Shown one piece after another: positions 25,196 to 51,174 of a DNA stretch of 64,000 nt. Under the pieces are notes generated by a model. The model saw only the letters and a list, made by a program, of their open reading frames with translations, ran no database searches and was not told the DNA's origin. A program made the position numbers and the translations under genes. The stretch's first letter is position 1. Every line of letters begins with the position of its first letter. This stretch comes from a candidate division FCPU426 bacterium. Its GTDB lineage: Bacteria > Oederibacteriota > PGYV01 > Palsa-1178. The stretch covers positions 1,024,001 through 1,088,000 of the forward strand of contig CAWIXE010000001.1 of assembly GCA_963840035.1 (NCBI GenBank), in the 5' to 3' direction.

Positions 25196-25196
25196 T

Positions 25197-25973
25197 ATGA
25201 ATTCAAAATTTTCCGCACTGTATAAAAAGGAACTCGCAATATTTTTCTCCATGCCCATTGCCTACGCGCTGCTTGCGGTGTTTGTGGCGCTCTCCGGCTA
25301 TTTTTTCTCAAGTATTGCCAATTATTACGCCATGGTATCCATGCAGGCTATGAGCCAGTACAACAGGGGCTCCATAGATTTAAATATCCTGCAGGGAATC
25401 TTCAGGCCGTATTTCAGCAATATGGTGGTTATTTTAATGCTGATGGTTCCGATCATCACCATGAGGGTCTTTGCGGAGGAAAAAAGGGAAGGCACTTCAG
25501 AGCTTCTTTTCACCTATCCTGTTTCAGACCTGACAATAGTCAGCGCAAAGTTCCTGGCGGCATATACGGTATTTGGCGTGATGATATCAGGGGCGTTAAG
25601 TTCCTTCATAATACTCCGGTTCTCGACGCCTTTTGAATTAGGCCCTGTGCTTGCCGGTTTTCTCGGGATGCTTCTTCTGGGGGCCGCTTTCCTGATGCTC
25701 GGAATTTTCATTTCATCCATGACGGAGAGCCAGATAGTGGCCGCGGTAATATCCTTTGGGGCGCTCCTGTTTTTCATGGTGCTGCCGTGGGCGTCGCAGT
25801 CGGTCAGCCCGTTCTGGGCAAAGGTAATAAACAACTTATCAATAGTGACGCACTTTGACAGTTTTTCAAAGGGCGTCCTTGACACCGCGGATATAACATT
25901 CCTTTTAAGTTTTTTCGCGGTATTCTTTTTCCTGACCTTACGGGTCCTGGAATCAAAACAGTGGAGGGGATAA
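25197..25973 (+). CDS. ABC-2 permease (GldF-like)
   Basis: KKEL..FF..PIAY, PIITMRVFAEEKREGT.ELL.T.P, KFLA. Confidence 0.9.
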   Translation: MNSKFSALYKKELAIFFSMPIAYALLAVFVALSGYFFSSIANYYAMVSMQAMSQYNRGSIDLNILQGIFRPYFSNMVVILMLMVPIITMRVFAEEKREGTSELLFTYPVSDLTIVSAKFLAAYTVFGVMISGALSSFIILRFSTPFELGPVLAGFLGMLLLGAAFLMLGIFISSMTESQIVAAVISFGALLFFMVLPWASQSVSPFWAKVINNLSIVTHFDSFSKGVLDTADITFLLSFFAVFFFLTLRVLESKQWRG

Positions 25974-25974
25974 T

Positions 25975-27543: not shown

Positions 27544-28895
27544 ACGGAAAAAAAATACTGGCGGCGTTTATGGCGTTTGCGCTGCTTGGCGCGTATTACT
27601 GGTTTTTTGAGGTAAAAAAGAAGGCTGAGGATGAAAAAATAAAAGCCGAGGCCGCGCGTTTTTTTCCGGGGTTTGACAGTAATAAAATATCGGAAATAAC
27701 AATAAAAAGCCCCAAAGGCAAAATATTCCTGAAAAAAAGCGGTGTTACCTGGTACATGGAAAAACCGGCAAAATATGAGTGTGACACGGGTTTTGTTGAC
27801 AGCATAGCGGCGTCTTTCGCGGCGGCCATACCAGAACAAAAAATTGACGGGATAAAACCACAGGATTTCGGCATTACGGGGAATGACCCGTCAATCATTT
27901 TCAGGGAATTTACAGGCAAAACTTATGAAGTTGTTTTCGGGACTGAAAGCAGCGCGTCCCATTTAATGTACGCGGCAAAACCCGGCGAGGCAGGGGTAGT
28001 CTACCTTATACCCCATACGCTTATAGATTATTGCGAGAAAACCATATTTGACCTGCGTTATAAAAAAATCCTTAAAATGCCGGAAGCGGCCATAGATAAG
28101 ATAGCGGTCAACGTTAAGGGCAAGAAATACACCCTTGTTAATTCGCCGGCCGGATGGCGGTTTGAACCGGACACTAAGGAAAAAGTAAAAACTGATATGG
28201 CAAACAACATCATAAGAACTTTTAGGGAAAATGTTGCGAAGTCAATGGAAGGCCCTGAGGCAGCGGGAAAGCGCGGCATAAGTGCTTCTTCTGAAACAGT
28301 GGATTTTTATTTTGGCAAAGAACACGCGAAAATAGTTTTCGGCAGTGAAGATAAGAAAAAATACTCGGTTTATGCCCAAAACAACCAGATAGACGACATT
28401 TTGGAGCTTCCGGATTTCGTATACTTGAACCTGCCGGCCTCACGTGACCTGGCGGATAAAAGGATAACCGGTTTTAACCCGCAGATGGCTCGGAGGATAG
28501 AGGCAAACTACGGTGACAGGTCTTTTATCGCGGAGAAGCAGACAGATCCCAAAAAGCCGGATAAATGGAAGATAAAAAGCGTGAAGATAAGCAAAGTTGA
28601 GGAAGCAAAAATAAACGGATCATTAATAGCTTCTGACCTTGCCTGGCTCGAGTATTCCGAAAAGATACAGGTGAAACCTGAAGGAAACCAGGAGCAGCTC
28701 TACGGGTTTGTTCCGGGGAATAACGTTATAAGGGTATTTGATGATAAAAATGCCATGTTGGCCGAGTTTAACATCGGGAAGAAAGCCAATAAACAGGAGC
28801 TGGTATTTGTCAGGACAAATAACCCCGGGGTTATATATCTCACGGGATTAAGCGGAATAAATAATCTGAATCTCCCGGGTATGGAGGTAAGGTAA
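27540..28895 (+). CDS. DUF4340-like protein
   Basis: N-terminal anchor, repeated W....P / FG-type domains, usual position after GldG-like genes; ATGA overlap. Confidence 0.75.
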   Translation: MNGKKILAAFMAFALLGAYYWFFEVKKKAEDEKIKAEAARFFPGFDSNKISEITIKSPKGKIFLKKSGVTWYMEKPAKYECDTGFVDSIAASFAAAIPEQKIDGIKPQDFGITGNDPSIIFREFTGKTYEVVFGTESSASHLMYAAKPGEAGVVYLIPHTLIDYCEKTIFDLRYKKILKMPEAAIDKIAVNVKGKKYTLVNSPAGWRFEPDTKEKVKTDMANNIIRTFRENVAKSMEGPEAAGKRGISASSETVDFYFGKEHAKIVFGSEDKKKYSVYAQNNQIDDILELPDFVYLNLPASRDLADKRITGFNPQMARRIEANYGDRSFIAEKQTDPKKPDKWKIKSVKISKVEEAKINGSLIASDLAWLEYSEKIQVKPEGNQEQLYGFVPGNNVIRVFDDKNAMLAEFNIGKKANKQELVFVRTNNPGVIYLTGLSGINNLNLPGMEVR

Positions 28896-30831: not shown

Positions 30832-33800
30832 ATGTTTATAAAACGGAATATAAAAGCATCCAGAATGATAAAAACAATGATTTCAATCGTTGTTGTTTTC
30901 ACGTTAACATTCATGTTTCAGTTTACATACGCAGCTCCAACCCCTAATACGAATGCTACTTACCTTGCCTGGGTTGACAGTTCAACCAATCCGCAGGGGC
31001 AAATACATATTTTTGGAGTCATCCCCAATACAAAAGTTACTGTGTACTCAACTCCTTTAAATGGGACAACAATTGCAGGCCCGACAACCATAACCAATAT
31101 TAACCTCCCGGTTGAAGGGTTTCCCATAGACTGGAGAAGTTTAAACGGCAATGTCCCGTTTGGTCAGATGTTTTTTAAGATTACTTCTGATTATCCTGTG
31201 ATATGGGAATCCGGAAACGTGAATATAGGATCAAATTTTGATTATGAAATAGGCGTTTTGTCATTAAACGGAACTTTAAGAGGGAGAACATTTTATACGT
31301 TCATGCAGCCTCTTTCAGCTGGCGGGGTGGCCGATGTTCTGACAGTGTTTAATCCGGATGCGGTACCTAAAAATATTACTGTTATGAAATGGAACACGGG
31401 TACAACAGCATATGACATTCCTGTTGCGGGAGGAACCTTTGCAGTGCCGGCTGGCGGGGTTTATACTTTCGCGCCTCCGGCGGCAACAGAGCTGGGATAC
31501 TATAAGGTTGTATCTGACAGCGATGTAATGATGTTTAAAGGTGTCGCGCAGAATTCTGACAATGACAATTGGTTTGAACACGGTTCTGACTGGATTTCAG
31601 GATCAAAAATAGGCACACAGGTTTATGGAAAATTTGGCGCTTTAGATACGAAAATGACCATAACAGGAATCACAGGGGGTATGATAAGTTACGACGTGTA
31701 CTATATGGATTATCCCGCGATGAATACATCGTCAACGGTATGGACGCTTTTAAGCAGCGGGGTAGTTGCGCAGGGCGCGGGTGCAAGTATAAATCCTCCT
31801 ATTAACGGCGGTATATTTAAGGTTATAACTACCGGCGGGGAAGTTCTGGTCGGCGGCGGTTCGACAATAATGACCAGTATGTGGGGCGATGGAGATTATG
31901 TTCCGGGATCCATAAACAAAAGCCCGCTCGATGTTGATTTTTATTTTACAACAGGAAACAACGGGAGCGGCGGCGGCGGCAATCCGGTTTGCTCGATAGT
32001 GTGCCCTACCGCAGGTACGTCAGTGAGCATATCTCCCGCAGGGCCGGTAATGACAGGACCCGCGACAACAGGGGCAGAAGACATGGCTGTGACATTTTCA
32101 GATCTGCTGCCGAACACCACTTATCACGTCACTTCAAACCTGCCTGTTTACTGTTTTTTTGAGAACGGCACAGGTTCTGAAAAAGCAATGACACTTTCTT
32201 ACATGACGGTGAAAAGACCCATCATGATAGACAAAAGCGCGAATGTGGCGCGGGCGCATGTCGGCGATACTATAACATACTGGATGAACTGGAAAGTTGA
32301 CGAGTCAAATACCATGCCATACCAGGCATATGCGTGGGATACAGTTCCAACGGAGTTTAGCATACTAAGCGTAAATCCGGCGCCTACATCACAGACAGGC
32401 AATTACATGTGGTGGGACTTGGGCGTAAGGAATGCCGGCGATTCAGGGGCTATGACAATTACAGCGCAGATAACAGCCGCCGCGATAGAAGGCGATACTT
32501 ATACAAATATCGGCATGGCATTTATGCCTGATACCATGCAGTTCCCGAACCAGTCTTCCGTGCCGATACTCATAGTGCCGCGGCAGCTGGAAGTGCTAAA
32601 AACGGCAAACAGGCCTTCTGGTACGCAGGGGGATACTGTGACATATTCGATTAACTACGCCAATACATCAGGCCTGGCGCTTACAAACGTTGTCATTACC
32701 GATTCTGTTCCTTCAGGGCTTTCATACCTTACATCCATACCGGCAGGCATATACACCCCGGCAAACCGGACCGTGCAGTGGTTTTTCGCGTCCATGGCTG
32801 ACAGGGCGTCAAATACCCTGACAGTGGTGGCGACTATTCTGAATACAGCCCCGGTAGGTTCGGTACAGACTAATTCGGTATTTTCTACAGCGGATCAGAC
32901 AGTGCCGGATTATTCCGAAGCGGATATTACGGTTTTGAATTCACCGCTTGACCTGACAAAAACCGCCAGCCCGTCTCAGGCTGTAAAAGGTGACACGATA
33001 ACCTTCACGCTTTCTTATCAAAATTTAACTTCCGGCGGGGCTTTTGCGGACAACCAGGGAATCAGCGTAAATTTTCATAATAATAACACAGCGGCAACAT
33101 CGCAAAGAATAAGCATGTATTATAATATTATTAATACAAACAATTTTCCCGTAGATATGCAGAATATCAGAATAAAGTACTATTTTAACGACCTTACCCG
33201 CGACCAGGATGGTTTTGGTTATGCGCAGGACTGGGTGTCGCCCGGGGTAACGCCCATACAGGGGGTTCAGGGGATAGGTTATACGGGGACGAATCTTGTG
33301 CATACGACAAAATTCGGAACTCATATGATTCCTGCAAACACTTCAAATACTGAGGCAAGGCTTTATATAAAGGATAAAAGCAGTTGGGTTAATATGGACA
33401 TGACAGATGATTATTCTTACGAAGGCGCGGCGACATCTACATACCACTACTGGAATAAAATTGTGGTTGAATATTATCTGAACGGCACCTGGATGGTTAT
33501 CCAGGGAGAGCCTCCGGGAGGGGTAAATGTCAACGGTGTTGTGGTAACAGATGATGTGCCGCCCTGTATCACCTATGGCGGCACTATAGGCGCGCCGGCC
33601 GGGATTTTTTCAGCCGGGACCATAACCTGGAATGTGCCAACGCTCATACCCTACGAAAAAGGTACTGTCCAGTGGTATGGCACATCAGACGCGACCTGCG
33701 GACAATATGTGACAAACGTGGCGCAGATAGCCGCACCCGGATACGGCCCGTATTCATCCAATGTCGCGGTTGTGAATTTCATTCCACCGCCGCTTTCAAT

Positions 33801-36475
33801 TACTAAAACCGCTTCGCCCTATCTCAACAGGCCTGGGGATACGGTTACATACTGGATTAATTTTATGAATAATAATCCGGCGCTGGATCTGGTTGGAGTA
33901 ACACCTGGAGTAACTCTACGTTCGGCAAATAAGGTATCAGGAACATTTCAAAGTTATCAGATGAATTTTAGGTTCTATAATAGTACCGGTAGCTCCATAG
34001 ACCCTACGAATTACAGGTTTATATATTATTTTAATGATAATCTTGCAAACTGGGGAGGAGCATCCGCGACAGGCATAACGTATCAACCGCAATGGAAAAC
34101 ATGCGGTTCATTATCGGCGTCATTTGTCGATATGGCGCCGGGATGTCTGGCAGGAAAATGCTGGCAGGCCAAGCTAATACAGTACAATACCGGATGCGGG
34201 TTGCTGGCTAATGGCAGTTACAATGAAATGCAAAACACATGGTACTGGCCGTCGTATTTACCAGAGTATAATTCCACTAACGACTATAGTTATTTGTTAT
34301 CGGACGGTGGAAATGCCGGATCAATTTATGCGCTTAACCCGAATATAGTCGTGGAACAAAATGTGGCTGGCGTATGGAAACTCGCGTACGGCATCTATCC
34401 TGATTTTCCGGCGCCGCTTTCAAATGTAAGCTTTTGGGACACCATCCCTGCGGACCTGCAGGTGCTTACGGTCAACGCTACCGGGCTTGGTTTTAGCGTG
34501 ACGGGAAATCTTATCAACACAAATATTGCCAGCATGCCGGGGCAGCAGGCATACAGCGTGACTGTAGTCGCGCAGGTCAGGGCCGGGGCGGCGCCAGGAG
34601 TTGTCACAAATACCGCGAACGTAAAACCGCAGGGCTTAAATAACGCCAGCGACGACGCGCCCATAGAGATCTATGTATATACGCCGACAAACACGCCCAC
34701 ATCCACGGCCACTTATACCAGAACAGCCACCGCTACACACACGCCGACTTCTACGCAAACACATACAAGGACGGCTACGCCCACAGACACCGCGACAGCC
34801 ACATATACCGCCACCTCGACGCCGTCTTATACGTTTACACAGACTTCAACATATACCATGACGCCGACATATACAGCCACACCAACGCAGACATTCACAT
34901 CCACACAAACCGACACGGCTACGCATACGCCGACATTTACGGGCACGCCGACTGCGACATTTACCAGGACTGCCACGGAAACTTTTACGCCAACCGCGTC
35001 ATTTACATTTACATACACGATGACGGCAACTCCTACCGTTACTTATACATTTACGGTCACGCCGACATCGACGGATACATTCACAATGACTTTTACCCCG
35101 ACTGCCACCGGGACATTCACGGACACTCCGTTCCACACGCCGACTTTTACTCCGACCGCCACGCAGACATATACTGCCACACCGACATACACTGCCACAA
35201 ATACATATACCCTTACAATGACCGCAACGCCCACTTTTACAGAAACAGACACACTGACATATACCCCCACTTATACGCTTACTTACACCAGGTCTTCAAC
35301 CCCCACGCATACAGTTACCTTTACCGACACATATACTTTTACCATGACACCCACATATACAGCCACGCCCACGCAAAGCAGCACTTACACATGCACTGAT
35401 ACATTGACCGCGACGCAGACATCAACGCCATCTTTTACGGCGACGCCGACATACACCCCCACATATACATTTACCGTGACTCCGACAGCCACGCAAAGCC
35501 CTACGGTGTCACCTACACCGCCGCCATACCCGTATATCATGAAAATTGAGGCTTTCAATACAGCCGGAGAAAGGGTAAAGATAATCGTGCAGTCGCCCAT
35601 ATCGGACAGGCCGGGTGATATTTTGCTGCTCATAAACGGAAAAACAACGGATATGTTCAACCCCGGAACACAGAGCCTGGAAATAAGCCTTCCGGGGATA
35701 ACCTGGCCGGGAAACCAGGCCGGAACATCTTCGCAGTTCTTCTGGGACGGGACTACTGATATGGGGCAGGACGTATCGCAGGGAATGTATTATATCAAAT
35801 TTGAAATAACAGACAGTTACGACCATGTCGTAACAAAGGTTATGCAGGTGCAGATAGTCCGCACGCAGGAACAGGTAAAAATATCAATCTTTAACAGCGC
35901 GGGAGAAGTTGTGCGCGTCATGTACGGGGACCACCTGCCGGCCGCGCAGGCTAAGCTGACTGTGGATAATACGGTAACAACGGGCGGCAGCGCGGAGAAT
36001 CATATTTTCATAGGCTACGGCGGCGGGCTTCATGTCATGTGGGACGGGAAAAATGAAACGGGCATAGCCGCGGCAACAGGGGTTTATGAGGTGAAGCTTG
36101 AAGTGGTAACCGCGGAGGGCTTAAGCACCATAGCGGCAAAATCAATAACAGTATTTAAGCTGGATAAAAACGACATTATAGCGGGGATAAAATCATACCC
36201 GAACCCCTACAGGCTGAAAAAAGGCGCGGTAAAACCGGCTGTTATAAGCTGGGCTTCGCCGTATGAAGGTATTGCGAACATTGGCGTGTATGATAAGGCC
36301 GGGGAAAAAGTACGTATGATAACCGGGCAACTCTCAGGGGGGCAGGCGTACTGGGACATGAAAAACTCTTCGGGCGAACAGGTTTCAAGCGGAATTTATA
36401 CCATCATAATAAACGCGAGAAGCTGTACAGGGAAATTCGCAAATGTCGGTTGTAAAGTTCGCGGTGATAAAGTAA
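30832..36475 (+). CDS. Giant secreted, apparently non-catalytic protein: N-terminal beta repeats, 4 DUF11 domains (2 carrying CBM3-like inserts), ~280-aa Thr-rich stalk, 3 FlgD-Ig/T9SS-CTD-like domains; +1 frameshift near 36430
   Basis: Signal peptide; (L/I)xKTA…GDT(I/V)TY…D.(V/I)P…TN.A repeats; [10 protein letters not shown]…DDYSY…GEPP; YPNPY…WDMKN..G..V.SGIY. The shifted frame ends VVKFAVIK* at 36475. Start may be 30865. Confidence 0.8.
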
Positions 36476-36563
36476 GGGTGTGTTTTGTACTACTCCTGTC
36501 TCCAATCTCCTGTCTCGTCTTTACTAATTCGGTGAATGTTATGGAGAATGTTCCAAAATCCCC

Positions 36564-36591
36564 TTGAAATTATACATTTAAGCGATATAAT
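36564..36591 (+). promoter_or_regulatory. Sigma70-type promoter
   Basis: TTGAAA-16-TATAAT. Confidence 0.55.
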
Positions 36592-36631
36592 ATAGGTGTT
36601 ACTTGATTTAAAGTCTTTTTGGGGGTGCATT

Positions 36632-37000
36632 ATGCCTGACGCTCAGATATATGTTGAAAAGAGAAAATACAAAAGAGTTGATAAAAGGATAGAAGTAACT
36701 TATAAAGTGGTATCCATGCCTTCGGAGATAGAAAAAATAAAAAAACAGGCCGATAAAAACGAGGCCGAATCTGCGAATATAAGCGTCGGAGGGATCCAGC
36801 TTATCAACAATGATAAACTTGAGCCCGAACAGATAATAAGGATAGAAATTATTATTGATAAGGCGCCCATGCCGATTATAACATTTGCGGAGGTAAGATG
36901 GAGCGCGAAGGACGACAACCTCGGTAAAAATAGAGCAGGAATTGAATTTTTGGTGCTGAAAGACGAAGATAAAAAGATAATTGAAGAATTGATAGGATAA
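36632..37000 (+). CDS. Stand-alone PilZ domain protein
   Basis: RxxxR (EKRKYKR), NISVGG, AEVRW, AGIEF. Confidence 0.9.
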   Translation: MPDAQIYVEKRKYKRVDKRIEVTYKVVSMPSEIEKIKKQADKNEAESANISVGGIQLINNDKLEPEQIIRIEIIIDKAPMPIITFAEVRWSAKDDNLGKNRAGIEFLVLKDEDKKIIEELIG

Positions 37001-39564: not shown

Positions 39565-39640
39565 AATTTTCAATTTTATATTTTCAATTTTCAATTAACA
39601 GCGGGAACAAACCGCGTCGTCCTGCCTTTAATTGAAAATT
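39565..39640. repeat. Heptamer-repeat inverted element between convergent genes
   Basis: Near-identical to 45347-45442 but lacking 3 heptamers. Confidence 0.85.
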
Positions 39641-42600
39641 AATCTTTAATAACAAACAATTTGCCTTTCTTAGCCGTATTGCTTCCCGGGTTTACAATCA
39701 CAAAATAATATATCCCCTGGGATATTGTTTTGCCTAATTTATTCTTCATGTCCCATGTCGTCCTGACCGAAGTGCACATAATGTCTTTCACGCTCTCGCC
39801 TGAGAGGGTGAAAATCCTTATCATGGAACCCGGAACTATGTTGTCAAATTTGACTGTGGTGTCTTTATTGAGGTTATAAGGGTTTGGAAAGACCACCGGC
39901 CTGCTTCTCGGGAACAATGACAAATCCGAGAACTGGGGCGGGTGTTTCTGGAACGAGGGCGTATATACCAGGTCGTTATAATCCGTGCCGGCTCTGTTAA
40001 TTATCATCTCCTGGCCAGGAGGGTTGGAAGTGACGCGCACGCTGTACTCAATGCGTATCTCTTCGCCGGGGGGAAGAGTGAACGGGTCGCCATACTGGTC
40101 TAATGAAAGGTCCCAGTGAAGGTAAGTGGATGAGGAATCAGCCGCAAGGGGCATGGCGAATCCGATATTGGTAAGCGTTACGTATGTGGGCACTGAATCC
40201 CAGACTGATATGTTTGTAACGGGCGAATCAGTATTGTTGGTGATCAATATTGTATAGTTGATGACAGACCCCAGTTTGGGGTCCTCGCCAGCGGATAAAA
40301 GTTCTATTTTAATGTTAACCGGCGAAGGGAGAGGCGTTAAGGTTACGGTAAGTGAAGCTGTGGGTGTGGAAGAAGGCGTATAAGTCGGGGTATAGGTGCG
40401 CGTATCACTGGAAGTGGGCGTGGAAGTAAGAGTGCGAGTGTTTGTGGAGGTAGGTGATGCTGTGGGCGTGTTTGTGAGTGTCTTTGTGCCTGTGGCAGTC
40501 GGCGTATCAGATGATGTCGGTGTTGCTGTCTGCGTATCAGTAAGGGTCCTTGTGCCCGTGAAAGTCGGCGTCATGGTGGCGGTGGAAGAAGGCGTGGCAG
40601 TATCAGAAGATGTGGGCGATGGCGTGAAAGTCTGGGTCGCGGTAAAAGTGTTGGTCCATGTCCTGGTGACAGTCGGTGTATTTGAAGATGGGGTATCCTC
40701 GGGTGTTGAAGAAGGGGTGTGGGTCATGGTAAAAGTGGCTGTGAGGGTGTAAGTAAGAGTCGGCGTGGCTGAAGACGACATTGTGGGAGTCAGGGTAAAG
40801 GTATAAGTCCCTGTCGGGGTGTTAGTCGATGTCGGCGAAGATGAAACAGTAAAAGAAGGTGTGGCTGTAAAAGTGGCTGTTGAAGTCCAGCTCGGGGTAA
40901 AGGTCGGCGAGAAAATGGTGACGGTCCATGTGTCCGTTACAGTCGGAGTATAGGTGCGTGTCGGTGTGTTTGTGGGCGTTGATGACGATGTGGTTGTGTA
41001 TGAATAAGTGGATGTGTATGAATATGTGGATGTAGGCGTTGCGCTTTGCGTGGATGTTTTTGTGCATGTGGGTGTGGCTGTCAGGGTGAATGATGGAGTG
41101 GATGTCCTTGTGGGGGTAAAGGTCGGCGTTGTCACGCCGCAGGGTATATCTATTGATGACTGCGCAGCTATGGTATAAGTCACGCCCTGCGGAACGGCAA
41201 AAGCAGTGTTAACAACAGGGCCGCACGGGCCGCTGGCCACTGCGTACCATTGATAGGATATTGAGGAGCCCTTTAACATCTGAGTTATGACCGGCCATTT
41301 GATATCCCCGGCCGCGGTAACGGTGACGGAATTTGTGCCTCCGAGGTAATTCAAACCCGCAGGCAGCGGGTCATGTATCAGCGTGTTGAAAGCGGTATCA
41401 AGTTCCGTGCGCCAGGATGATACAACGTGCGCGCCTCCGGTGTACTGGGTGAATGCCGGGACAGAACCGTTGGCTATGCCTGCAAAGCCGGCTCTTATGG
41501 GGATACCGCTTACAGACAAATCCGCCGCTGGCGGAAAGTTTGTGTCGGTAATGTTCTTCTGGAAGATGCTGATAGTGTCGCCGTTTAAAACTATTTTTAT
41601 ATCCAGATTCTTCATGGATGTCGCTATTTTTGCCGTGCCTATGGCTGTCGCGCCGTTATATATCTGTATCCTGTTGCCGTCCCACTGGCTGTTAAACCTT
41701 ATGTATATGCCGTCCGCGACAGCAGTGCCGGCCGTATGCCTTACAACTACGGCAAAATCCTGCCCGTCCTGTATGTTTGCCCTGAGCTGAACTGTGCCAT
41801 TTATGCCGTGGGAATAATTATAGGTGTATATGCTGGAGTCAGCTGAAGTGGAAGCCTGAGAACCGTTAAAGGTCCAGGTGCCGGTTGCTCCGTATCTTTT
41901 TGTCCAGTTCCCGGCTGTAAATACGTTTTGCGATGCGTCTGCGGAATTGACAACCGAGCCGTTTAAACTTGTATAATCTATGATATATGTAAATGTGGAG
42001 TTCAAAGCCGGGGATGCATTGGTTGCCGTTTTAGTAATTGAAGCCGGCGCGGGCGGCGGAGGCGGGACATACGCGCATGTGACGGAAACAGTCGCGGAGT
42101 CCGCCACAGGCGATTCGTTGTCGCCGTATATAAAGGCTGTGTTTATCATGTCGGGGTTTACTATCCCGGAAGGGCAGGAACCGTTGACAGTAACCCAGTA
42201 TTTTAATTCAGCGCACTGGTTTACAAGCATGTTGCCCGCGTTTACTGTTATGTTCCTGCCGGATACGGTCTTGGTCGCCGAGTCAGAATCAATAAACCCG
42301 CCGAAGGTAACGCCCGTGGGAAGGCTGTCTATGACAAATACATTCTTAACCTGCCTGCCCGGTTGAGGCCCGTCTCCAAAAACCCTGCGCCAGGTATATC
42401 CGTCAAATTCCTCGACCAATACGTTAGAAAGGGATGGTTTAGTGCCGTTGCATGAGGTAAGGTTGATGGTCGTGACCGGGATTGATGTTCCGTCCCCCTT
42501 GGTCCAGTCCGGGGATATCGGATAAGGGAAATATGCAAGGCCGTTGCCGTAGCCAACCTGTGAATACGGCGCTGTAATTGGAAGCTGAGACCAGTCATCC

Positions 42601-45326
42601 GACCAGTCCTGCGCAGGCTCGCCGTTGCCTGCAATTGATACTGCGGTGACCAGCGGCTGAAGAGTGCCTATGCCGCCCGGGTAATGCATTGAAGTGTCAT
42701 TGTTAAAATATTTATGCAAAATGTGGGTTGGCAGCGAAGTGGAAGCCTGGAAGCCGATTATGAGCCTCTGGTTCCAGCAGTTGATAGCGTCGCAATTGGA
42801 TACCAAATCCTCGGTGGAAAGGCTTAAACCAAGCGTTCCCTCGTTGTTGACCGTTGTGACCACCCAGCCTGTCGGATTTGTCGCCGCGTTGTATACGCCG
42901 CGGTAGGTCGAATTCACAAAGTATGAAACCCTGTAATTCCCCCAGTCAATCCACGGTTCGGTTGCTTCGTGCGCCCCGCGTATGGTCAAAACTTTCCTGC
43001 CGGCCACAGTAAACGGGTTCTCGGCTATCGAGAATGTCACACCGTACCTTCCGCCGTTTATCCATCCGGCGCTGGAAGAATCGCAGTAGCTTATGGTATA
43101 AGTGATAGTGTCGCCCGGGTTAGCCATGTGGTTTGACGCTGTTTTTGTAAGGGCAAGCGCGGCAGCCACGATATCCACGCAGTTGGTCTTGCATATTTTT
43201 GTCACTTCATTGGGCTGGTCGTTGCTGGTCCAGCCTGTACCGTTCGTACAGGTAATGTCAGCTGTTGTGCAGTACTTCGAATTTGGAGCGTCATCGCGCA
43301 CCCTCACGACAAGCGTAACTCCGCCCATTGTGGCGTTTAAGTTTGAATAGCTGTGCAGCCCCGGCACGGCGCCAATGCTCCAGGTGATGGTTTTTCCTGA
43401 CTGCGTATACGGCCCCGTGGCGCTTGAAAAATCAAAAGCCGCAGGAAGTGTCTCTGAAATCACAACGCCTGTGGCGTCAGTTGAACTGTAGTTGCGGTAG
43501 TTTATCCAGTATGTAAGGATGTCGCCTGTAAAGGCGTAGGTCTTATTAATCGCCTTATAAATTTTCATGTTTGCCTTTTTATACTCGGGCGAAGCCAGGT
43601 TTATGTTATTCTCAACCGGGTCCGTATAATTGCCTGTTAAAACAAGCAGCCCCAGCATCCTGAACCATTCATGGAAATATACCGGGACGCCTGTTAAGTA
43701 CAGGTCGCCCTTTACCTGGGAATCCCATGTTACAAACAGTTCCCTGAGCATAGTTTCCATAAAGGCGAATTTTTGGGAGTTTAAGATGGCGGCCGAGGCT
43801 GAGCCCATGGTGTAATTAGTATGCCAGTCATTGGCCGCCCCGTTCATGACGCTGCCGTCGAGGAAATAGCCCTGCCTGGTTTCAGCGGCGCCTTTGAATG
43901 TCAGGCCGTAAGTACCCCATTGCATGCAGCGAGTGCCTGCCGCGTCCTCCAGGAAGTTGGCAACTTTTAAGGATGACAGGTATTCATAATTATTGCCGGT
44001 TGAGCCGTCGATTGTATGTGTGGATGGATTCCAAGTATTTGCCGCCGCCGGGTTGCCATAAAGCGTATAATCAAGGGCGTGCCTCCATATGGAGCGAAAA
44101 TCCTCCCCGTCGTTCATGTTCGCAAATGTAGCGTCTGTCGCTGTGGCGTTATAATACCCGGCGATAGGGTAAGCGTGTTTCGCGTTGAGCCTGCCCTGCA
44201 GCCAGAAGTCAGAGGCGGCGGCGCGCTCAAGCTGGTCGACATTGAACCTGCCGAAAGGAGTGCCGTTCCAGCGGAGATGCGTGGCGTCGGTTAAGTCAAG
44301 CGCCGCGTTGTTCCTGATAAGAGCGTCAGCAAACGCGCGCCAGTATGAAGGGCCGGTGTAATCGTAAAAATTTTCGTTTGTCGCGGCTGGGCCTTCGGTA
44401 AAACCGTAAGGGCCGTCCCATGGGTCTGTGGCCCCGTTAGGGGACGGCACAAAATTGGTGTTTTCGTTCTGGGTATTTCCGCCTTTATGATATCCGTCAA
44501 AACCTACGACGCCTGTAATCCAGTCCCTGGGCTGGTTAGTGTGGTCGTCGCCTAAATCCAGGGCTACAAGGTAGCGTATGGCCGCAAGCGCCATGTCCTT
44601 GTATTTGATGGCCTTTAAACCGCCGGTATTTGTTTCCGGGCCGTGGCCGCCCGTAGCGTAGTAACCGGTGAAATCGCCCCACTGATACCAGGCAAGCAAA
44701 AGCGCCATGGCAATATCCACGTCCCCGTCAGTTGCAGAGTCACCCGGCGGCGCGTAAACAGAAATGAAATGCTGCCCGAAATTCGCGCCGTTCGTGCCCC
44801 TGGAAACCCAGGAACCGTCTGAATACTTCATGGCGTTCATGAGGCGTCCGTTTTCGACAAGCCAGAACCAGATGCCGTCAAAAGTTTTCTTGTCAGCCAT
44901 CAACGCCGCGCACAAAAGCGCGTAACCCTGTCCCTCGGAGCAGTTGGCGTTATTCGCCTGGACATTTACCATCTGAAAATTTACCGGGTTGGCGTTATTT
45001 GCCAGCTTGTAATTGGGGGGCGCGCCGTCATAGGCAAACCTGTTTGCGAATATCTGCCACCCTTCGGCTATCCATTTTTCCATTTCCGCGTGCGACACGC
45101 CGTCAGGCTGGTGCGCAAAATCAGAGAGGGAATAAAGGGTCGCCTGGCCGCCGGCTTTATAGTTTTTAAACTGTGGAAAAGGCATGTTGGGCCCTGTGGT
45201 TAAGGGGTAGTTTGAATTTATGGTGACAGCCGCGGCGTTATATACGTTAATGGCGGCAAAAAAATCGCCGCAGGGAAACGTGAGAAATAACAAGGCTGTA
45301 ATGATTATTATTTTTTTAAAACGCAT
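39639..45326 (-). CDS. Secreted multidomain GH8-like hydrolase: GH8 + DUF11s with inserted CBM3-like and jelly-roll modules + Thr/Ser stalk + DUF11 + T9SS-like CTD
   Basis: Signal peptide; SEGQGYALL; SATDGDVDIAMALLLA..QWG; FPNPY…IFTLSGE.V…WDMKN..G..I.QGIY…KGKLFVIKD. Confidence 0.88.
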   Translation of the reverse strand: MRFKKIIIITALLFLTFPCGDFFAAINVYNAAAVTINSNYPLTTGPNMPFPQFKNYKAGGQATLYSLSDFAHQPDGVSHAEMEKWIAEGWQIFANRFAYDGAPPNYKLANNANPVNFQMVNVQANNANCSEGQGYALLCAALMADKKTFDGIWFWLVENGRLMNAMKYSDGSWVSRGTNGANFGQHFISVYAPPGDSATDGDVDIAMALLLAWYQWGDFTGYYATGGHGPETNTGGLKAIKYKDMALAAIRYLVALDLGDDHTNQPRDWITGVVGFDGYHKGGNTQNENTNFVPSPNGATDPWDGPYGFTEGPAATNENFYDYTGPSYWRAFADALIRNNAALDLTDATHLRWNGTPFGRFNVDQLERAAASDFWLQGRLNAKHAYPIAGYYNATATDATFANMNDGEDFRSIWRHALDYTLYGNPAAANTWNPSTHTIDGSTGNNYEYLSSLKVANFLEDAAGTRCMQWGTYGLTFKGAAETRQGYFLDGSVMNGAANDWHTNYTMGSASAAILNSQKFAFMETMLRELFVTWDSQVKGDLYLTGVPVYFHEWFRMLGLLVLTGNYTDPVENNINLASPEYKKANMKIYKAINKTYAFTGDILTYWINYRNYSSTDATGVVISETLPAAFDFSSATGPYTQSGKTITWSIGAVPGLHSYSNLNATMGGVTLVVRVRDDAPNSKYCTTADITCTNGTGWTSNDQPNEVTKICKTNCVDIVAAALALTKTASNHMANPGDTITYTISYCDSSSAGWINGGRYGVTFSIAENPFTVAGRKVLTIRGAHEATEPWIDWGNYRVSYFVNSTYRGVYNAATNPTGWVVTTVNNEGTLGLSLSTEDLVSNCDAINCWNQRLIIGFQASTSLPTHILHKYFNNDTSMHYPGGIGTLQPLVTAVSIAGNGEPAQDWSDDWSQLPITAPYSQVGYGNGLAYFPYPISPDWTKGDGTSIPVTTINLTSCNGTKPSLSNVLVEEFDGYTWRRVFGDGPQPGRQVKNVFVIDSLPTGVTFGGFIDSDSATKTVSGRNITVNAGNMLVNQCAELKYWVTVNGSCPSGIVNPDMINTAFIYGDNESPVADSATVSVTCAYVPPPPPAPASITKTATNASPALNSTFTYIIDYTSLNGSVVNSADASQNVFTAGNWTKRYGATGTWTFNGSQASTSADSSIYTYNYSHGINGTVQLRANIQDGQDFAVVVRHTAGTAVADGIYIRFNSQWDGNRIQIYNGATAIGTAKIATSMKNLDIKIVLNGDTISIFQKNITDTNFPPAADLSVSGIPIRAGFAGIANGSVPAFTQYTGGAHVVSSWRTELDTAFNTLIHDPLPAGLNYLGGTNSVTVTAAGDIKWPVITQMLKGSSISYQWYAVASGPCGPVVNTAFAVPQGVTYTIAAQSSIDIPCGVTTPTFTPTRTSTPSFTLTATPTCTKTSTQSATPTSTYSYTSTYSYTTTSSSTPTNTPTRTYTPTVTDTWTVTIFSPTFTPSWTSTATFTATPSFTVSSSPTSTNTPTGTYTFTLTPTMSSSATPTLTYTLTATFTMTHTPSSTPEDTPSSNTPTVTRTWTNTFTATQTFTPSPTSSDTATPSSTATMTPTFTGTRTLTDTQTATPTSSDTPTATGTKTLTNTPTASPTSTNTRTLTSTPTSSDTRTYTPTYTPSSTPTASLTVTLTPLPSPVNIKIELLSAGEDPKLGSVINYTILITNNTDSPVTNISVWDSVPTYVTLTNIGFAMPLAADSSSTYLHWDLSLDQYGDPFTLPPGEEIRIEYSVRVTSNPPGQEMIINRAGTDYNDLVYTPSFQKHPPQFSDLSLFPRSRPVVFPNPYNLNKDTTVKFDNIVPGSMIRIFTLSGESVKDIMCTSVRTTWDMKNKLGKTISQGIYYFVIVNPGSNTAKKGKLFVIKD

Positions 45327-45346: not shown

Positions 45347-45442
45347 ATTTTCAATTTTATATTTTCAATTTTCAATTAACAACGGGAACAAACCGCGTCG
45401 TCCTGCCTTTAATTGAAAATTGAAAATTTAGAATTGAAAATT
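45347..45442. repeat. Heptamer-repeat inverted element (AATTTTC type)
   Basis: aattttc-aatttta-tattttc-aattttc-aatt ... aattgaa-aattgaa-aatttag-aattgaa-aatt. Confidence 0.9.
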
Positions 45443-48400
45443 AATCTTTAATAACAAACAACTTGCCTTTCTTAGCCGTATTGCTTCCCGGGTTTACAAT
45501 CACAAAATAATATATCCCCTGGGATATTGTCCTGCCTAATTTATTCTTCATGTCCCATGTCGTCCTGACTGTGGTGCACATGATATCCTTTACGCTCTCG
45601 CCCGAGAGGGTGAATATCCTTATCATGGAGCCCGGGACTATATTGTCAAATTTAACGGTTGTGTCTTTATTTAAGTTATACGGGTTCGGGAAAACAACCG
45701 GCCTGCTTCTCGGGAACAATGACAAATCCGAGAACTGGGGCGGGTGTTTCTGGAACGAGGGCGTATATACCAGGTCGTTATAGTCGGTGCCGGCCCTGTT
45801 AATGATCATGTCCTGTCCCGGCGGCGTGGAAGTGACGCGCACGCTGTACTCAATGCGTATCTCTTCGCCGGGGGGAAGAGTGAACGGGTCGCCATACTGG
45901 TCTAATGAAAGGTCCCAGTGAAGGTAAGTGGATGAGGAATCAGCCGCAAGGGGCATGGCGAATCCGATATTGGTAAGCGTTACATATGTGGGCACTGAAT
46001 CCCAGACTGATATGTTTGTAACGGGCGAATCAGTATTGTTGGTGATCAATATTGTATAGTTGATGACAGACCCCAGTTTGGGGTCCTCGCCAGCGGATAA
46101 AAGTTCTATTTTAATGTTAACCGGCGAAGGGAGAGGTGTTAAAGTTACGGTAAGTGAAGCTGTGGGTGTGGAAGAAGCCGTATAAGTCGGGGTATAGGTG
46201 CGCGTATCACTGGAAGTGGGCGTGGAAGTAAGAGTGCGAGTGTTTGTGGAGGTAGGCGATGCTGTGGGCGTGTTTGTAAGTGTTTTTGTGCCTGTGGCAG
46301 TCGGTGTGTCAGATGACGTAGGCGTGGCTGTCTGCGTGTTTGTAAGTGTCTTTGTGCCTGTGGCGGTAGGCGTGTCAGATGATGTAGGCGTGGCTGTCTG
46401 TGTGTCTGTAAGTGTCCTTGTACCTGTGAAAGTCGGTGTCATTGTGGACGTGGAAGAAGGCGTGGCAGTATCAGAAGATGTGGGCGATGGCGTGAATGTC
46501 TGCGTCGCTGTAAAGGTATTTGTCCACGTCCTGGTGGCTGTGGGAGTATTAGACGACGGTGTATCCTCGGGTGTGGATGATGGTGTGTGCGTCATGGTGA
46601 ATGTGGCCGTGAGCGTGGAAGTAAGCGTGGGTGTGGCTGAAGAAGACATAGTGGGAGTCAGGGTAAAGGTATAAGTCCCAGTAGGGGTATTAGTCGATGT
46701 CGGAGAAGAAGAGGAAGTGAAAGTAGGGGTGGCGGTAAAAGTGGCCGTCGAAGTCCAGCTCGGGGTGAAGGTCGGCGAAAAAATGGTGACGGTCCATGTA
46801 TCCGTTACAGTCGGCGTTGAAGTGCGTGTCGATGTATTTGTGGGTGTGGATGACGATGTGGCTGTATATGAATATGTGGATGTAGGTGTCGCGCTTTGAG
46901 TGGCGGTTCTAGTAAACGTTGATGTTGATGTGACGGTAGAAGATGAAGTCGGCGTCTTGGTGGGCGTGAAAGTAGGGGTTGTGGCCCCGCAGTTGACCCT
47001 GACAATTGTGGCGGCGATTATCGGGGTTATTATTCCCTGGGGATAAACCCTGACAGTGTTTGTTATATTCTGGCACGAGCCGGTGACCTGGCCCCACCAT
47101 GTGAAGGCGGCGGCCTGGTTCAGATTAAGCACTGCTATTGTCGGCCAGCTGACAACACCGGTATTTAAGGCAGCGCCGCCGGATCCGCCGATAAATGAAA
47201 CACCGGCAGGCAGGGTGTCAAGGACCGCGGTATTATAGGAGGTGTCAAGTTCCGAGTGCCATGATGTCAGCCAGTGGGTGCCGTAATTATCAGTAACGGT
47301 TCCGGGAATACCGTTTATAACGCCGGCGTAACCTGGCTGGACTGTCATGCCTGTCATGGAGACAGGCGTGGAGAATCCTTCAAAACTCTGCGTGAGAGTG
47401 TTGTCAATATAACATACAATAGTGGGGCCGTTTAATACAACTTTAAGGTCGAAATCGGCATTTATCAGGATGCTTTGAGTTGTGCCCACCTGGGTTGTAC
47501 CGTTCCAGAATCTCACCTCACCATTAACCGGCGGGTTTGGTTTAAACGTAATATGCACGCCGTTTGCCGGGCCGTTAACGCCTGTGTGCCTGACAGTTAT
47601 TCCAAATACCGCAAAATTCTGCATGTGCACACGCGCGATGATAACGCCGTTCGTTCCGTTTGAGGAATTGTTTGTCATGATTGTGCTTTGATTCGAAATA
47701 TTTGATATTTTTCCTCCAGTGACAGTCATGTTCGTAGCCGGGGTGTTGCGGTTTGTCCAGCTGGCGGCGGAAGTGAGCGGGTCGTCTATTATGGAACCGT
47801 ATGTGTTGGAATAATTAATCGTGTACGTTACTGTATCGCCTGTATTATATGTTGCCTGGCTTGCGGTTTTAGTCAGTGATGCCGGCGCCGGGGTCGAAGT
47901 CGGAACAGCGGCGCAGGTGATGGTCACGCGTTTTGCGTCAAAGACGTAGGACTCATTATCCGCGATAGCGAAGGCAATGTTATCGGCGTACTGGTCAAGG
48001 CCCGGGCAGCCGATGGGGTTTACAGTAGTCCAGTATTTTCTGGTCTGGCATTCATTGACAAGCATTGAGGCGGTTGTCCATTGCAGTGTCCTGCCACCCG
48101 GTTGTGTCCCTGCGGTACCGAGCCATCCACCAAAAGTAACCTGGGTGGGAAGAGAATCCGTAACAACGATATTATCCAGCTGCCTTCCGGGCTGCGGGCC
48201 GTTGCCGAAAACCCTGCGCCAGGTATAGCCGTCAAATTCTTCTATGAGGATATTATCCACGCTGTGCAAAGAGGTGTTCGTGGCATCGCAGGCTTCTTTG
48301 TTTATTTTTGTCACAGGCACTGATGTCCCGTCGCCTTTTGTCCAGTCAGGCGTTATGGGCCAGAATGGGTCATTCTGGGTTGCTGTTTCCCAGGCCGCCG

Positions 48401-50965
48401 CCTGAGACCAGTCGTCGGTCCAGTCCTGGGGATTATATCCCGCGGTGATTCTTCCTTTTATTATGAAAGGGGCAAGCGTATTGCCCATGTGTATTAATGA
48501 GGGAACACCGGCTACATTGAATAGTTGGTGTGTCGGTATGGTTCCGGCGTTTCCAAACTGAAGCATAATCCTCTGGTTCCAGGAGCCGCGCGCGTCTGTA
48601 CCGGGCACCAGGTCCTCGGTGACAACCTGCTGTGAACCGTTTGGAAAACCAGCCACATAATCCAGCGCGATGGTCCATGCCGCGCCGTGATAGGATGAGT
48701 TCAGGAAGTATGAAATCCTGTAATTCTGCCAGTTGATGACCGGCTCTGTCGCGGCGTGGTTGGCGCGCAGATAAAAAGTAAGCGCGTCGGTTGCCGTGCC
48801 GGGGACCGAGTCCACGGCAAATGAGAAATTAACCCCGGACCTGCCGCCGTTTATCCAACCTGCTTTTGATGAATCGCAGTACTGCAGGGTATAGGTTATA
48901 GTGTCCCCGCCGTTTGCTAGATATGAAGAGGCTGTTTTTGTTATGGTCAGGGCCGCGGGAACTATGTCCACGCAGTTGGTCTGGCAGGTGTCTGTTACTT
49001 CGTTGGGGATATCATTTGACCGCCAGCCTGAGCCGTTAGTGCAGCGGATGTCGGTTGTATTGCATATTTTTGTGAGGCCCGCGGTATCCTTAATGCGCAC
49101 CACGAGTGTAATGCCTCCCTGTGTGGGGACGATATTCTGGTTCTGTACGCCTGTGACGGTAAAAGGCCCCCATTCATAAACGTTGCCGCCGAGAGGCGTG
49201 GCTGCCGGAACAGACGATACAAAGTCATACTCTGCCGCAAGAGTGTCGCGGACTACCACGTTATTCGCGGTAAGCGTGCCGTAATTGCGGTAATTCATGC
49301 GGTATGTGATGAGGTCCCCTGCGAATGAATAAGTTTTATTGACGGCTTTATATACTTTCATGTTGGCGGTTGGCGCTATGTTACACGGGTTGGTATGATT
49401 GCCGGTTAATATCATGAGGCCAAGCTGCCTGAACCAGCCGTGGTAATAATGCGGCACTGAAGTGATGTAACCGTCCCCGGGGGTTGTGGCGTCCCATAGT
49501 ATCATGGCTTCCCTGAAAAAATCTCCGGCTAAGGTATAGTCGTTATTTTGTTTGGAACCTACGAGTATGCTCGGCGCGCCTGTCCCGAAATACCAGTTTA
49601 AGTGGAACTGGAAGGATACGGGATTTCCGTCCATGTCGTAATCATGCGCCACGCCCGCGGCGCCCTGATAGCTGATGGGCCCGGCATTCGCCCATTTGAT
49701 GCAGGGTATGTCGTTTTTGAAAAAATTATAAACTTTGAGAGCCGTGCTGTATTGATAAGAGTTGCCTATGGCTGTCGGCTGATGCGTGGTTGGGTTCCAC
49801 GTAGTCGCCGGGTCTCCAAACCACAGGTTGTCAATTCCTTTTCTCCACATGCCCCTGAAATCCTCGCCTTCGTTGAACCTTCTGAATGAAGCGGTCTGCG
49901 TGGCTTCGTTTACGCTGTATATGCCGACAACCGGGAACACATGGCTCAAGCTGAGCTGGTTTTGCAGCCAGGCATCCGCGGCTGAAGCGCGAAGGTATTG
50001 GTTTACGTTTGACCAGCCGCCTGTGCCGGGGGTATTATCCCTGGCAGCCCCGTATGACTGGAGCGCGCAAGCGAAAGTATTTAAATATCCTGAACCTGTA
50101 TAATCATAATAGTTTTCTGAAGGCCCGGCAAACTGCGGCCGCGCGCCGAATAAGGCAAGGCCTGTGGTCGTGCCCCAGGCTGTCGTTTCTCCTGAAAAAC
50201 CGCCGCCTGTGTTGCCGCCGCGCGCGTAACCGTCAAACCCAATATCTCCCGAGGTCCACTGATTGTCGCCTAAGTTGTTCCCTTCGTCTTTTTCTACCAT
50301 GAAGCGCATCATGTCGAGGGCCATCTGCCTGTACTCGATTTCGTTTCCGCCTGCCCCTGCCGCGCCTGTTCCGCCCGGAGCGTAATACCCGCTTCCATTG
50401 CCCCACTGTTTCCATGCTATGAGGGCTGCCATTGCTATGTCCATGTCGCCGTCAGCAGCGGTATCCGAACCAGTCCCGTATACTGCCGGAGCGTGGGAGC
50501 CGAAAACATAACCCGCGTCATTTACGGCTCCGGTTGAATATATTTTGGTCTTATGGAAATAACCGTTCTCGTTAAGATAAAACCATAACCCGTCAAAAGC
50601 GTCCTTGTCGCACATAAGCGCCGCTGCCAAAAGCGCGTAACCGTGGCCTTCAGAGCACCATGGGGAGGAGCTGTCCCTTATGAGCTGGACTGTCTTTCCT
50701 CCGTAAGTAATTGAACCGTTGTAGTTGAATTCGTTGGAATGTATCTTCCATGCCTCGCGGAGCCATTTTTCCATTTCAGCGTGAGAAACGCCGTCAGGCT
50801 GTACTGACGAGTCTGAAGCGATTTAATGCCATTGGCGTAATTTAGGAACTGGGGGAATGGGAGAACCGGATTTCCGGAATTGATATTTATGTTAATTGCT
50901 GAAAAGACAAAAATGGGCATAAGCATAGATATGATGACTGTAAGCGTTAAAATTTTATGTTTCAT
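45441..50965 (-). CDS. Paralogous multidomain GH8-like hydrolase; frameshift at 50816-50817 separates the signal peptide
   Basis: ORFs 50678-50965 and 45441-50774. Adding one A at 50816 gives SLSDSSVQPDGVSHAEMEKW, matching the paralogue's SLSDFAHQPDGVSHAEMEKW. SEGHGYALL, AADGDMDIA. Confidence 0.88.
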
Positions 50966-51026
50966 CCCGCAAACACCCTTTCATGATAAGAAATGCCGTT
51001 CTATTTTTGCGTGAAAGCACAACCGT

Positions 51027-51055
51027 ATTATACAAATATATCGCTTTTATGTCAA
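51027..51055 (-). promoter_or_regulatory. Perfect sigma70 promoter for the GH8 pair
   Basis: TTGACA-17-TATAAT on the minus strand. Confidence 0.85.
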
Positions 51056-51145
51056 TTGGTATACCGTTTAAGTAACCCAAAAATTTAGACACATATAATA
51101 ATGAAAGGTTTCGCTGTTTTTGAACGTAAAAGCCTTAAAAAAAAT

Positions 51146-51174
51146 TTGACATGGGCAGGATGCGGTGTTAAAAT
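51146..51174 (+). promoter_or_regulatory. Divergent sigma70 promoter for the sugar-binding protein
   Basis: TTGACA-17-TAAAAT with extended TG. Confidence 0.8.

Follow-up and report, generated by a model that had tools for sequence, protein, structure and literature searches.

Carbohydrate-binding modules of family 3 nested in split DUF11/CLIPPER domains of a giant protein, most likely surface-attached, from a candidate division FCPU426 bacterium

A stretch of 64,000 nucleotides from a candidate division FCPU426 bacterium (assembly GCA_963840035.1, contig CAWIXE010000001.1, positions 1,024,001 to 1,088,000 of the forward strand) was analysed. This whole stretch is referred to as the window, and all coordinates are positions in it. 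The window contains gene A (30832..36567, + strand), which encodes a giant protein of 1911 amino acids (aa) that has no internal stop and is predicted to be secreted. Two of its four tandem DUF11 domains are split at the same loop, and a carbohydrate-binding module of family 3 (CBM3) is nested in each of the two splits. With a probability of roughly 65%, we read the gene A product as a secreted, surface-attached polysaccharide-binding protein, most likely cellulose-binding, in which nested CBM3 modules are carried on a stalk of DUF11 domains. The DUF11 family (PF01345) has recently been renamed CLIPPER and is described as having a CnaA-like fold with an Asp catalyst (PMC12617251, Protein Sci 2025).

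From its N-terminus, the product consists of a signal-peptide-like start, a head of about 430 aa, the four DUF11 units (aa 463-585, 586-704, 705-985 and 986-1280), a Thr/Pro-rich spacer, three domains that resemble the immunoglobulin-like (Ig) domain FlgD-Ig, and an end of the kind associated with type IX secretion systems (T9SS). The Pfam families found on it are DUF11, CBM_3 and FlgD_ig. Units 1 (32218..32583, +) and 2 (32584..32943, +) are uninterrupted; they score 25.4 and 59.1 bits against the Pfam DUF11 model (cut-off 24.6 bits), and the match of unit 2 extends without a break over profile positions 2-100. For units 3 and 4, each flank was scanned separately against the same profile. In unit 3, aa 706-733 in the N-terminal flank (32944..33030, +), which holds the first two strands, correspond to profile positions 2-29, and aa 899-977 in the C-terminal flank (33526..33786, +) to positions 32-107. 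In unit 4, the corresponding values are aa 988-1016 for positions 2-30 (flank 33787..33879, +) and aa 1195-1266 for positions 32-98 (flank 34414..34671, +). Both units are thus cut at one profile position (29/30 versus 32), with nothing lost or duplicated. Scored as a whole, they pass the cut-off with 32.6 bits (unit 3) and 31.6 bits (unit 4), each in two stretches. A preliminary description of the window, made by a model from the sequence alone, had pointed to an uninterrupted DUF11 in this protein, which is unit 2, and had placed inserts of about 165-175 aa at 33025-33516 and 33877-34401 within one DUF11 loop. The sequence strings that it quoted are present where it located them, and the two flanks of each unit together cover the whole Pfam model. 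The insert boundaries move by a few codons only, to 33031-33525 (insert 1, +, aa ~734-898, about 165 residues) and 33880-34413 (insert 2, +, aa ~1017-1194, about 178 residues).

Unit 3, as the sole unit to be folded, was modelled on its own by AlphaFold2 from an alignment of seven rows. The model has a mean predicted local distance difference test score (pLDDT) of 80.7 and a predicted template modelling (TM) score (pTM) of 0.65. The model has two strands ahead of the insert (residues 2-9 and 18-27) and eight or nine behind it, which is slightly above the seven to nine reported for this family (PMC12617251). Confidence is highest in the flanks, with block means of 92, 92 and 86 for residues 1-30 and of 77-97 for residues 191-281. 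Sequence and model are therefore consistent with the two halves of each split unit forming one DUF11 domain. Since the split is kept in six orthologues (46-66% identity) and in eight non-self cluster representatives among the matches listed in the search described below, we do not regard it as a chance pattern.

The preliminary description had also proposed that the inserts are CBM3 modules. For insert 1 this is borne out by Pfam, by sequence matches in the PDB and by predicted fold; for insert 2 it is borne out by profile-profile comparison only. Insert 1 scores 33.8 bits against Pfam CBM_3 (PF00942, cut-off 22.4 bits), and Pfam CBM_3 matches six of the seven gene A orthologues. When insert 1 was compared with the PDB by phmmer, 17 distinct CBM3 sequences were found at expectation values (E) up to 0.01. 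The best match was 2xbt_A (6.4e-9), followed by 4b97, 3zqw and 1g43, and 1nbc was also among the 17; the five best alignments run from chain start to chain end or near it. The preliminary description had suggested AlphaFold and Foldseek as a check of the inserts. A Foldseek search of the PDB with the unit 3 model gave CBM3 structures at all of ranks 1-17 (target TM 0.70-0.81, root-mean-square deviation (rmsd) 2.6-3.8, about 157-173 columns), with 4b96 as the best match (E 1.1e-8, target TM 0.81, rmsd 2.6).

Insert 2 aligns with insert 1 from end to end in BLASTP, at 27% identity and E 1e-5. Profiles of the two insert families, each built from the seven orthologues, were compared by hhalign with a canonical CBM3 profile of 124 domains from 88 non-nested hit proteins. 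The insert 1 family gave 99.4% (E 1.9e-21, 143 columns) and the insert 2 family 98.3% (E 2.5e-14, 144 columns); the two insert families gave 99.2% with each other. An unrelated insert of the neighbour genes, which served as a control, gave 1.4% (E 0.036, 47 columns). Because insert 1 was the bait with which the canonical CBM3 set had been collected, the result for insert 2 is the more independent of the two. Judged by sequence and predicted fold, insert 1 is a CBM3 module, and by its sequence profile insert 2 is a diverged one.

All four DUF11 units carry a Lys/Asp/Asn triad: K468, D503 and N559 in unit 1; K590, D624 and N681 in unit 2; K710, D907 and N962 in unit 3 (codons 32959-32961, 33550-33552 and 33715-33717); and K992, D1203 and N1260 in unit 4 (codons 33805-33807, 34438-34440 and 34609-34611). 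These 12 positions are identical in all seven orthologues, and seven diverse nested units likewise show no exception at the K, D and N. The insert of a split unit separates the Lys, on its N-terminal side, from the Asp and Asn on its C-terminal side; the Asp is in the strand that follows the insert. A profile of the five uninterrupted DUF11 units of the window has its best PDB match in 9ifr_A; the match is weak (E 0.037), with Lys and Asp aligned and the Asn outside the alignment. A single intact DUF11 gave a chance match only, and the five-sequence profile was needed to reach 9ifr_A. The crystal structure 9IFR contains a Lys715-Asn806 bond adjoining Asp748, and the CLIPPER isopeptide bond is reported to confer thermal and protease stability (PMC12617251). 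Isopeptide bonding in DUF11 is thus published knowledge and not new here, and Lys-Asn bonds probably form in the DUF11 units of gene A as well. The preliminary description had suggested that the conserved Lys and Asn could form such bonds as in CnaB-type domains. The idea of such a bond holds up, since both residues are invariant (7/7) and a DUF11 bond has been seen by crystallography, but the class has to be corrected: the fold is CnaA-like and the catalyst is Asp (PMC12617251). A CnaB-type domain would have a transthyretin-like fold and a Glu catalyst, with Lys and Asn on its first and last strands, which adjoin each other; the family does not fit this class, and the acid kept in gene A is Asp. 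CnaA and CnaB folds are both said to tolerate domains inserted in loops, with vWFA, thioester and CnaB domains as examples (PMC12617251).

To find relatives of the nested units, unit 3 was used to scan 1.84 billion cluster representatives, which yielded 156 matches at E up to 1e-3, of which 150 were listed. Most of the matches listed are ordinary CBM3 or ordinary DUF11 proteins; six of them that were checked are canonical CBM3 proteins that lack DUF11. Not counting the protein of the window itself, the whole nested unit was found in one alignment in three of the matches listed (P0003, P0014 and P0016) and in two pieces around a larger insert in five (P0020, P0027, P0049, P0118 and P0133). P0003, P0014 and P0016 have a complete domain of glycoside hydrolase family 8 (GH8) upstream (102-136 bits, a range that includes P0090) and a CBM_3 match of 20-29 bits in the nested unit. 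The truncated P0090 also has a full GH8 domain and a CBM_3 match; only the first half of its nested unit is kept. The gene A family itself consists of the window copy and six sequences at 46-66% identity over aa 705-1280, with lengths of 1860-1942 aa. Two of these orthologues are named in their source merely as uncharacterised TIGR01451 repeat proteins. A search of species-representative genomes for gene A relatives with a single unit as query returned 33 pattern matches, none of which was confirmed. In a tree built from 33 nested units, the unit 3 sequences group together, as do those of unit 4, both with 100/100 support, so the duplication that gave rise to them is older than the divergence of the gene A orthologues. 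The tree left the relationships among unit 3, unit 4 and the GH8-type units without resolution.

Each ingredient of this architecture is known: CLIPPER bonds, adhesive domains nested in CnaA-like pilin domains, split Ig domains with carbohydrate-binding modules (CBMs), and CBM3. A close precedent for the stalk is the CLIPPER/DUF11 domain of an Acinetobacter fibrillar adhesin (9IFR), which shares with gene A the Pfam family, the Lys/Asp/Asn spacing, tandem stalk units and the setting in a long secreted surface protein (PMC12617251). That domain and the family are described as uninterrupted, whereas two of the four units of gene A are split by a whole CBM3; CBMs, cellulose and GH8 were not found mentioned in the main text of PMC12617251 or in one supplement. 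For the nesting, a close precedent is given by the tip pilins RrgA and GBS104 (3TXA), where, as in gene A, a CnaA-like Ig domain hosts an adhesive module. The host domain of GBS104 comprises residues 137-211 and 587-717, with Lys188 before the insert and Asp597 and Asn692 after it (PMC12617251), which is the order seen in the split units of gene A. However, RrgA and GBS104 belong to Gram-positive sortase pili and their vWFA insert binds host proteins, while gene A combines CBM3 with DUF11 and a T9SS-type sorting signal. RTX adhesins such as AhLap follow the same principle, in that an Ig domain of the stalk is split and a domain for binding carbohydrate or ligand emerges from it, off the axis (PMC12077191). 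They differ from gene A in their Ca-dependent BIg-type extenders, type I secretion, lectin-like CBMs of other families and lack of an isopeptide triad. No Pfam family for RTX nonapeptide repeats or a type I secretion signal was detected on the gene A product, which therefore does not class as an RTX adhesin. The CBM3 modules of scaffoldins and GH9 enzymes (2XBT, 3ZQW, 1G43, 1NBC and 4B96) share sequence, predicted fold and core motifs with the gene A inserts. Canonical CBM3s are joined to their neighbour modules by linkers, whereas both termini of the CBM3 in gene A re-enter the host domain, and its binding strip is only partly kept. In the literature outside subscription journals we found no CBM nested in a DUF11 or isopeptide domain. 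As far as our searches reach, the combination of CBM3 in CLIPPER with T9SS-type sorting and a link to GH8 is thus new.

Two further giant genes of the window bear on the function of gene A. Gene B (39639..45326, - strand) encodes a protein in which a GH8-like domain is followed by one intact DUF11, by two DUF11 units that are split, by a Thr-rich spacer and by a sorting domain of T9SS type A; gene C (45441..50774, -) is its paralogue with the same layout and an apparently broken 5' end. The split units of B lie at 42042..43163 (unit 1, -, DUF11 in two stretches) and 41127..42050 (unit 2, -), and those of C at 47880-48965 and 46980-47891 (units 1 and 2, -). In all four, the C-terminal flank restarts at DUF11 profile positions 31-33 (32 in unit 1 and 31 in unit 2 of B), so that the six split units of genes A, B and C all use the same DUF11 loop. 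In 44 aligned B/C-type copies, the triad is complete for unit 2 (K, D and N each 44/44) and nearly so for unit 1 (K 44/44, D 44/44, N 35/44). The Pfam family GBS104-like_Ig is touched by two of the 44 B/C units.

The insert of B/C unit 1 (213-247 aa across the family) has core motif positions as in the CBM3 inserts of gene A. In hhalign it gave 98.0% with the insert 2 family of gene A (E 1.8e-13, 158 columns), 88.9% with the insert 1 family and 13% with canonical CBM3. We thus read it, from these profile comparisons, as a probable enlarged descendant of CBM3, with a transitive link through insert 2 of gene A. Pfam CBM_3 matches none of the 44 members at unit 1. When 422 open reading frames (ORFs) of the loci described below were searched with a hidden Markov model of canonical CBM3, none of the GH8-family nested units was matched; an ordinary CBM3 (locus L006) and a weak stretch (locus L035) were the only hits. 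A value of 100% between the B/C alignment and a mixed alignment of nested units was discarded as non-independent because the latter includes two B/C-like rows. The insert of unit 2 (162-202 aa across the family) has no assigned family and no Pfam match. A protein Atlas search linked it to the ConA-like families PelX_N, GH43_C2 and 3keto-disac_hyd at 0.92-0.94, which we treat as a lead only, and an hhalign comparison with one LamG domain gave no support for LamG (0.9%).

A locus scan with the full-length B/C alignment gave 271 relatives in species-representative genomes, and 75 loci were kept. According to their genome labels, 40 of these belong to Bacteroidota, 13 to Fibrobacterota, three to Goldbacteria, five to Spirochaetia and one to Methylomirabilis, and 13 are unclassified. 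The Bacteroidota-labelled loci are mostly from Cytophagales and include Cytophaga aurantiaca DSM 3654, metagenome-assembled genomes (MAGs) of Sporocytophaga, and Aquimarina aggregata. The best relatives of B and C, at 46-47% identity, include sequences from MAGs labelled Goldbacteria and from unclassified MAGs. Unit 1 was detected in 74 of the 75 loci and unit 2 in 55, and many loci stop at contig edges. The layout of GH8, long regions and a T9SS sorting domain is shared with the large GH8 proteins known from Cytophaga hutchinsonii and Sporocytophaga myxococcoides (among them CHU_1075 and CHU_3440/3441; PMC6247017), a likeness that rests on the loci from Cytophaga aurantiaca, Sporocytophaga MAGs and others. 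These large proteins are described as abundant on filter paper and as lacking a known function over most of their length (PMC6247017).

Some further features of genes B and C and of the loci were noted. Upstream of the first ATG of gene C (50775-51161, -), the frame is B-like over some 16 codons, after which a stop follows. The gene C call has no signal peptide, and its 5' end looks broken or mis-assembled. By eye, the Thr-rich spacers and C-terminal domains of B (39639-41100, -) and C (45441-46900, -) are near-identical, while the N-terminal halves are far more diverged, which suggests recent gene conversion or partial duplication. The ordinary CBM3 of L006 (L006:1980-2420, in a MAG labelled Spirochaetia) matches the canonical profile at E 9e-49 and lies in an ORF of 920 aa. 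The locus also has two GH8-family nested units, and the CBM3 is about 5 kb upstream of the nearer one.

The remaining parts of gene A, all on the + strand, concern secretion and attachment. The signal-peptide-like hydrophobic N-terminus (aa 12-34, 30865..30933) was read from the sequence, and the six orthologues start similarly. An alternative start at 30865, a Met 11 codons downstream, would give a protein of 1900 aa, as in the database copy P0002. The Thr/Pro-rich linker (34678..35535, about 285 aa) was likewise read from the sequence, and its alternating Thr pattern is kept in the orthologues. It is followed by the three FlgD-Ig-like domains (Pfam FlgD_ig 50.8 bits, three stretches) and the T9SS-type C-terminal region with its atypical tail (together 35536..36567). 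Since members of the gene A family match FlgD_ig and Por_Secre_tail, the latter in five of the seven at E up to 0.05, and since B and C reach the cut-off of 23 for the sorting domain TIGR04183 (24.9 and 24.7 bits), the gene A product is probably displayed on the cell surface. When the window copy was tested with the T9SS sorting domain (TIGR04183 / PF18962), only a partial PorZ-CTD-like match was obtained. Its C-terminal tail (36450-36567, +) is about 20 residues longer than in the six orthologues and holds part of the sorting domain only. Given the extended tail and the partial match, this copy may have an altered sorting signal.

The genes around gene A are ordinary chromosomal ones: SecDF, DnaK, GroEL, DnaJ, a GldA/F/G-like ABC transporter, HtrA and riboflavin genes. 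The GldA/GldF/GldG-like transporter and a DUF4340 protein (24260-28895, +) lie just upstream of HtrA and gene A, and the scores of this region for gliding families are all below the equivalog cut-offs. An ORF at 16318-17745 (+) also ends in a PorZ-CTD-like, T9SS-type C-terminal region (33.8 bits), which suggests that the window encodes several sorted surface proteins. Directly downstream of gene A there is a small ORF with a PilZ domain (36596-37000, +), and a strong promoter-like site lies at 36564-36591.

In the mechanism that we propose, the chain would leave the Ig domain, build the CBM3 and return to complete the Ig domain, with the CBM3 housed in the loop that joins the second strand to the one bearing the catalytic Asp. 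The CBM3 modules would project off the axis of the stalk. The Lys-Asn bond would hold both halves of the host domain together like a staple around the foot of the CBM3; a pull on the CBM3 would then be unable to detach the first two strands from the Ig domain, and the covalently locked stalk would carry the force. The Thr/Pro spacer, the FlgD-Ig-like domains and the T9SS-type end would tether the product to the cell surface. We consider cellulose the most likely ligand because the closest solved relatives of the inserts include cellulose-binding scaffoldin modules, because the nested units of relatives follow GH8 domains, and because both neighbours B and C are GH8-like. A further reason is that Goldbacteria, a label borne by some of the MAGs with the best relatives of B and C, have been captured on cellulose bait and encode CBM3 and GH8, as described in PMC7031533.

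Several observations weigh against this reading of gene A. The Pfam CBM_3 match of insert 1 spans only profile positions 1-43 of 83, and insert 2, at 19.5 bits, stays below the cut-off of the same family. A sequence search of the PDB with unit 4 alone found no CBM3. The pTM of the unit 3 model is just 0.65, and its low-confidence residues 31-35, 49-51, 112-115 and 159-169 fall inside the insert. The gene A family is small, with seven sequences, and the C-terminal sorting region of the window copy is atypical. Moreover, several CBM3 subtypes are not known to bind cellulose. The planar motif of CBM3a in CipA comprises W118, R112/D56, H57 and Y67 (PMC9586272), and this strip is only partly kept in gene A: the D56-like position is Asp in one of seven orthologues and the H57-like position is Trp in five of seven, although the alignment of the loop is ambiguous. 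On the side of cellulose, and with the same ambiguity of the alignments in the planar-strip loop, an aromatic residue (W or Y) occupies the position of CipA W118 in 7/7. Finally, the unexplained head might be the part of gene A that really matters for its function.

This last point leads to the reading that gene A encodes mainly an enzyme and no adhesin as such, with an undescribed catalytic domain as head, CBM3 modules that target the substrate and DUF11 units as spacers. Of all parts of the family, the head (aa 35-462, 30934..32217, +) is conserved best, and many of its Asp, Glu, Trp and Gly columns are invariant among the seven orthologues; in relatives it is a GH8 catalytic domain that the nested unit follows. 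However, the head has no match by sequence in Pfam, NCBIfam or the PDB, and the protein Atlas search returned only weak, non-enzymatic and uninformative leads. Its conservation would suit a new binding domain as well as a catalytic one, and we regard a mainly enzymatic role as rather unlikely.

A second alternative accepts the CBM3 fold but not the ligand: the inserts could bind some glycan other than cellulose, such as chitin, xylan or an exopolysaccharide of the cell itself, or could serve in a structural or linker-docking role, as CBM3 subtypes without binding do. The partial conservation of the planar strip fits this, as does the strong divergence of insert 2 and of the B/C inserts, which score below the Pfam cut-off or match in 0/44 members; in addition, it is in core motifs, not on the binding face, that the nested units share invariant residues. 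Against it stand the GH8 enzymes among the nested-unit relatives and the GH8-like neighbours, the cellulose-binding scaffoldin CBM3a/b modules among the closest solved relatives, and the aromatic residue at the W118-like position in every orthologue, so that we judge it improbable. That the units are not nested at all, with the strands of the N-terminal flank completing or swapping into the preceding domain and the CBM3 standing in tandem between incomplete Ig domains, is very hard to reconcile with flanks that cover the DUF11 profile exactly once and without gap, preceding units that are complete by themselves, co-conservation of the Lys before and the Asp/Asn after the insert (7/7 in A, and 44/44 for five of the six B/C positions), high pLDDT of both flanks when unit 3 is modelled alone, and the same topology solved in GBS104 (PMC12617251).

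Beyond gene A, a wider proposal is that one CLIPPER/DUF11 loop serves cellulolytic bacteria with T9SS-type sorting as a general socket for glycan-binding modules, and that the enlarged insert of the GH8 giants is a CBM3 descendant invisible to family models. We put this forward tentatively and hold it to be somewhat doubtful as a generalization. Nested domains of this kind defeat standard domain searches, which return the host DUF11 as fragments and give the guest CBM3 a low score or miss it. Carbohydrate-binding capacity may for this reason be under-counted in organisms whose digestion of cellulose is unexplained. In our view, the more interesting part of the finding is this proposal of modules, CBM3-derived and others, hidden in the large GH8 proteins that cellulolytic Bacteroidota and Fibrobacterota carry. 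An Ig loop that locks itself and accepts guests of about 160-250 residues would also be a ready-made display scaffold for engineering. For the bacteria themselves, a binding module stapled by an isopeptide bond would suit a gliding or surface-attached cell that holds on to an insoluble substrate under load. If the hidden modules bind cellulose, they would provide the covalently braced anchor for cell-bound cellulases that has so far been missing for Cytophaga and Sporocytophaga.

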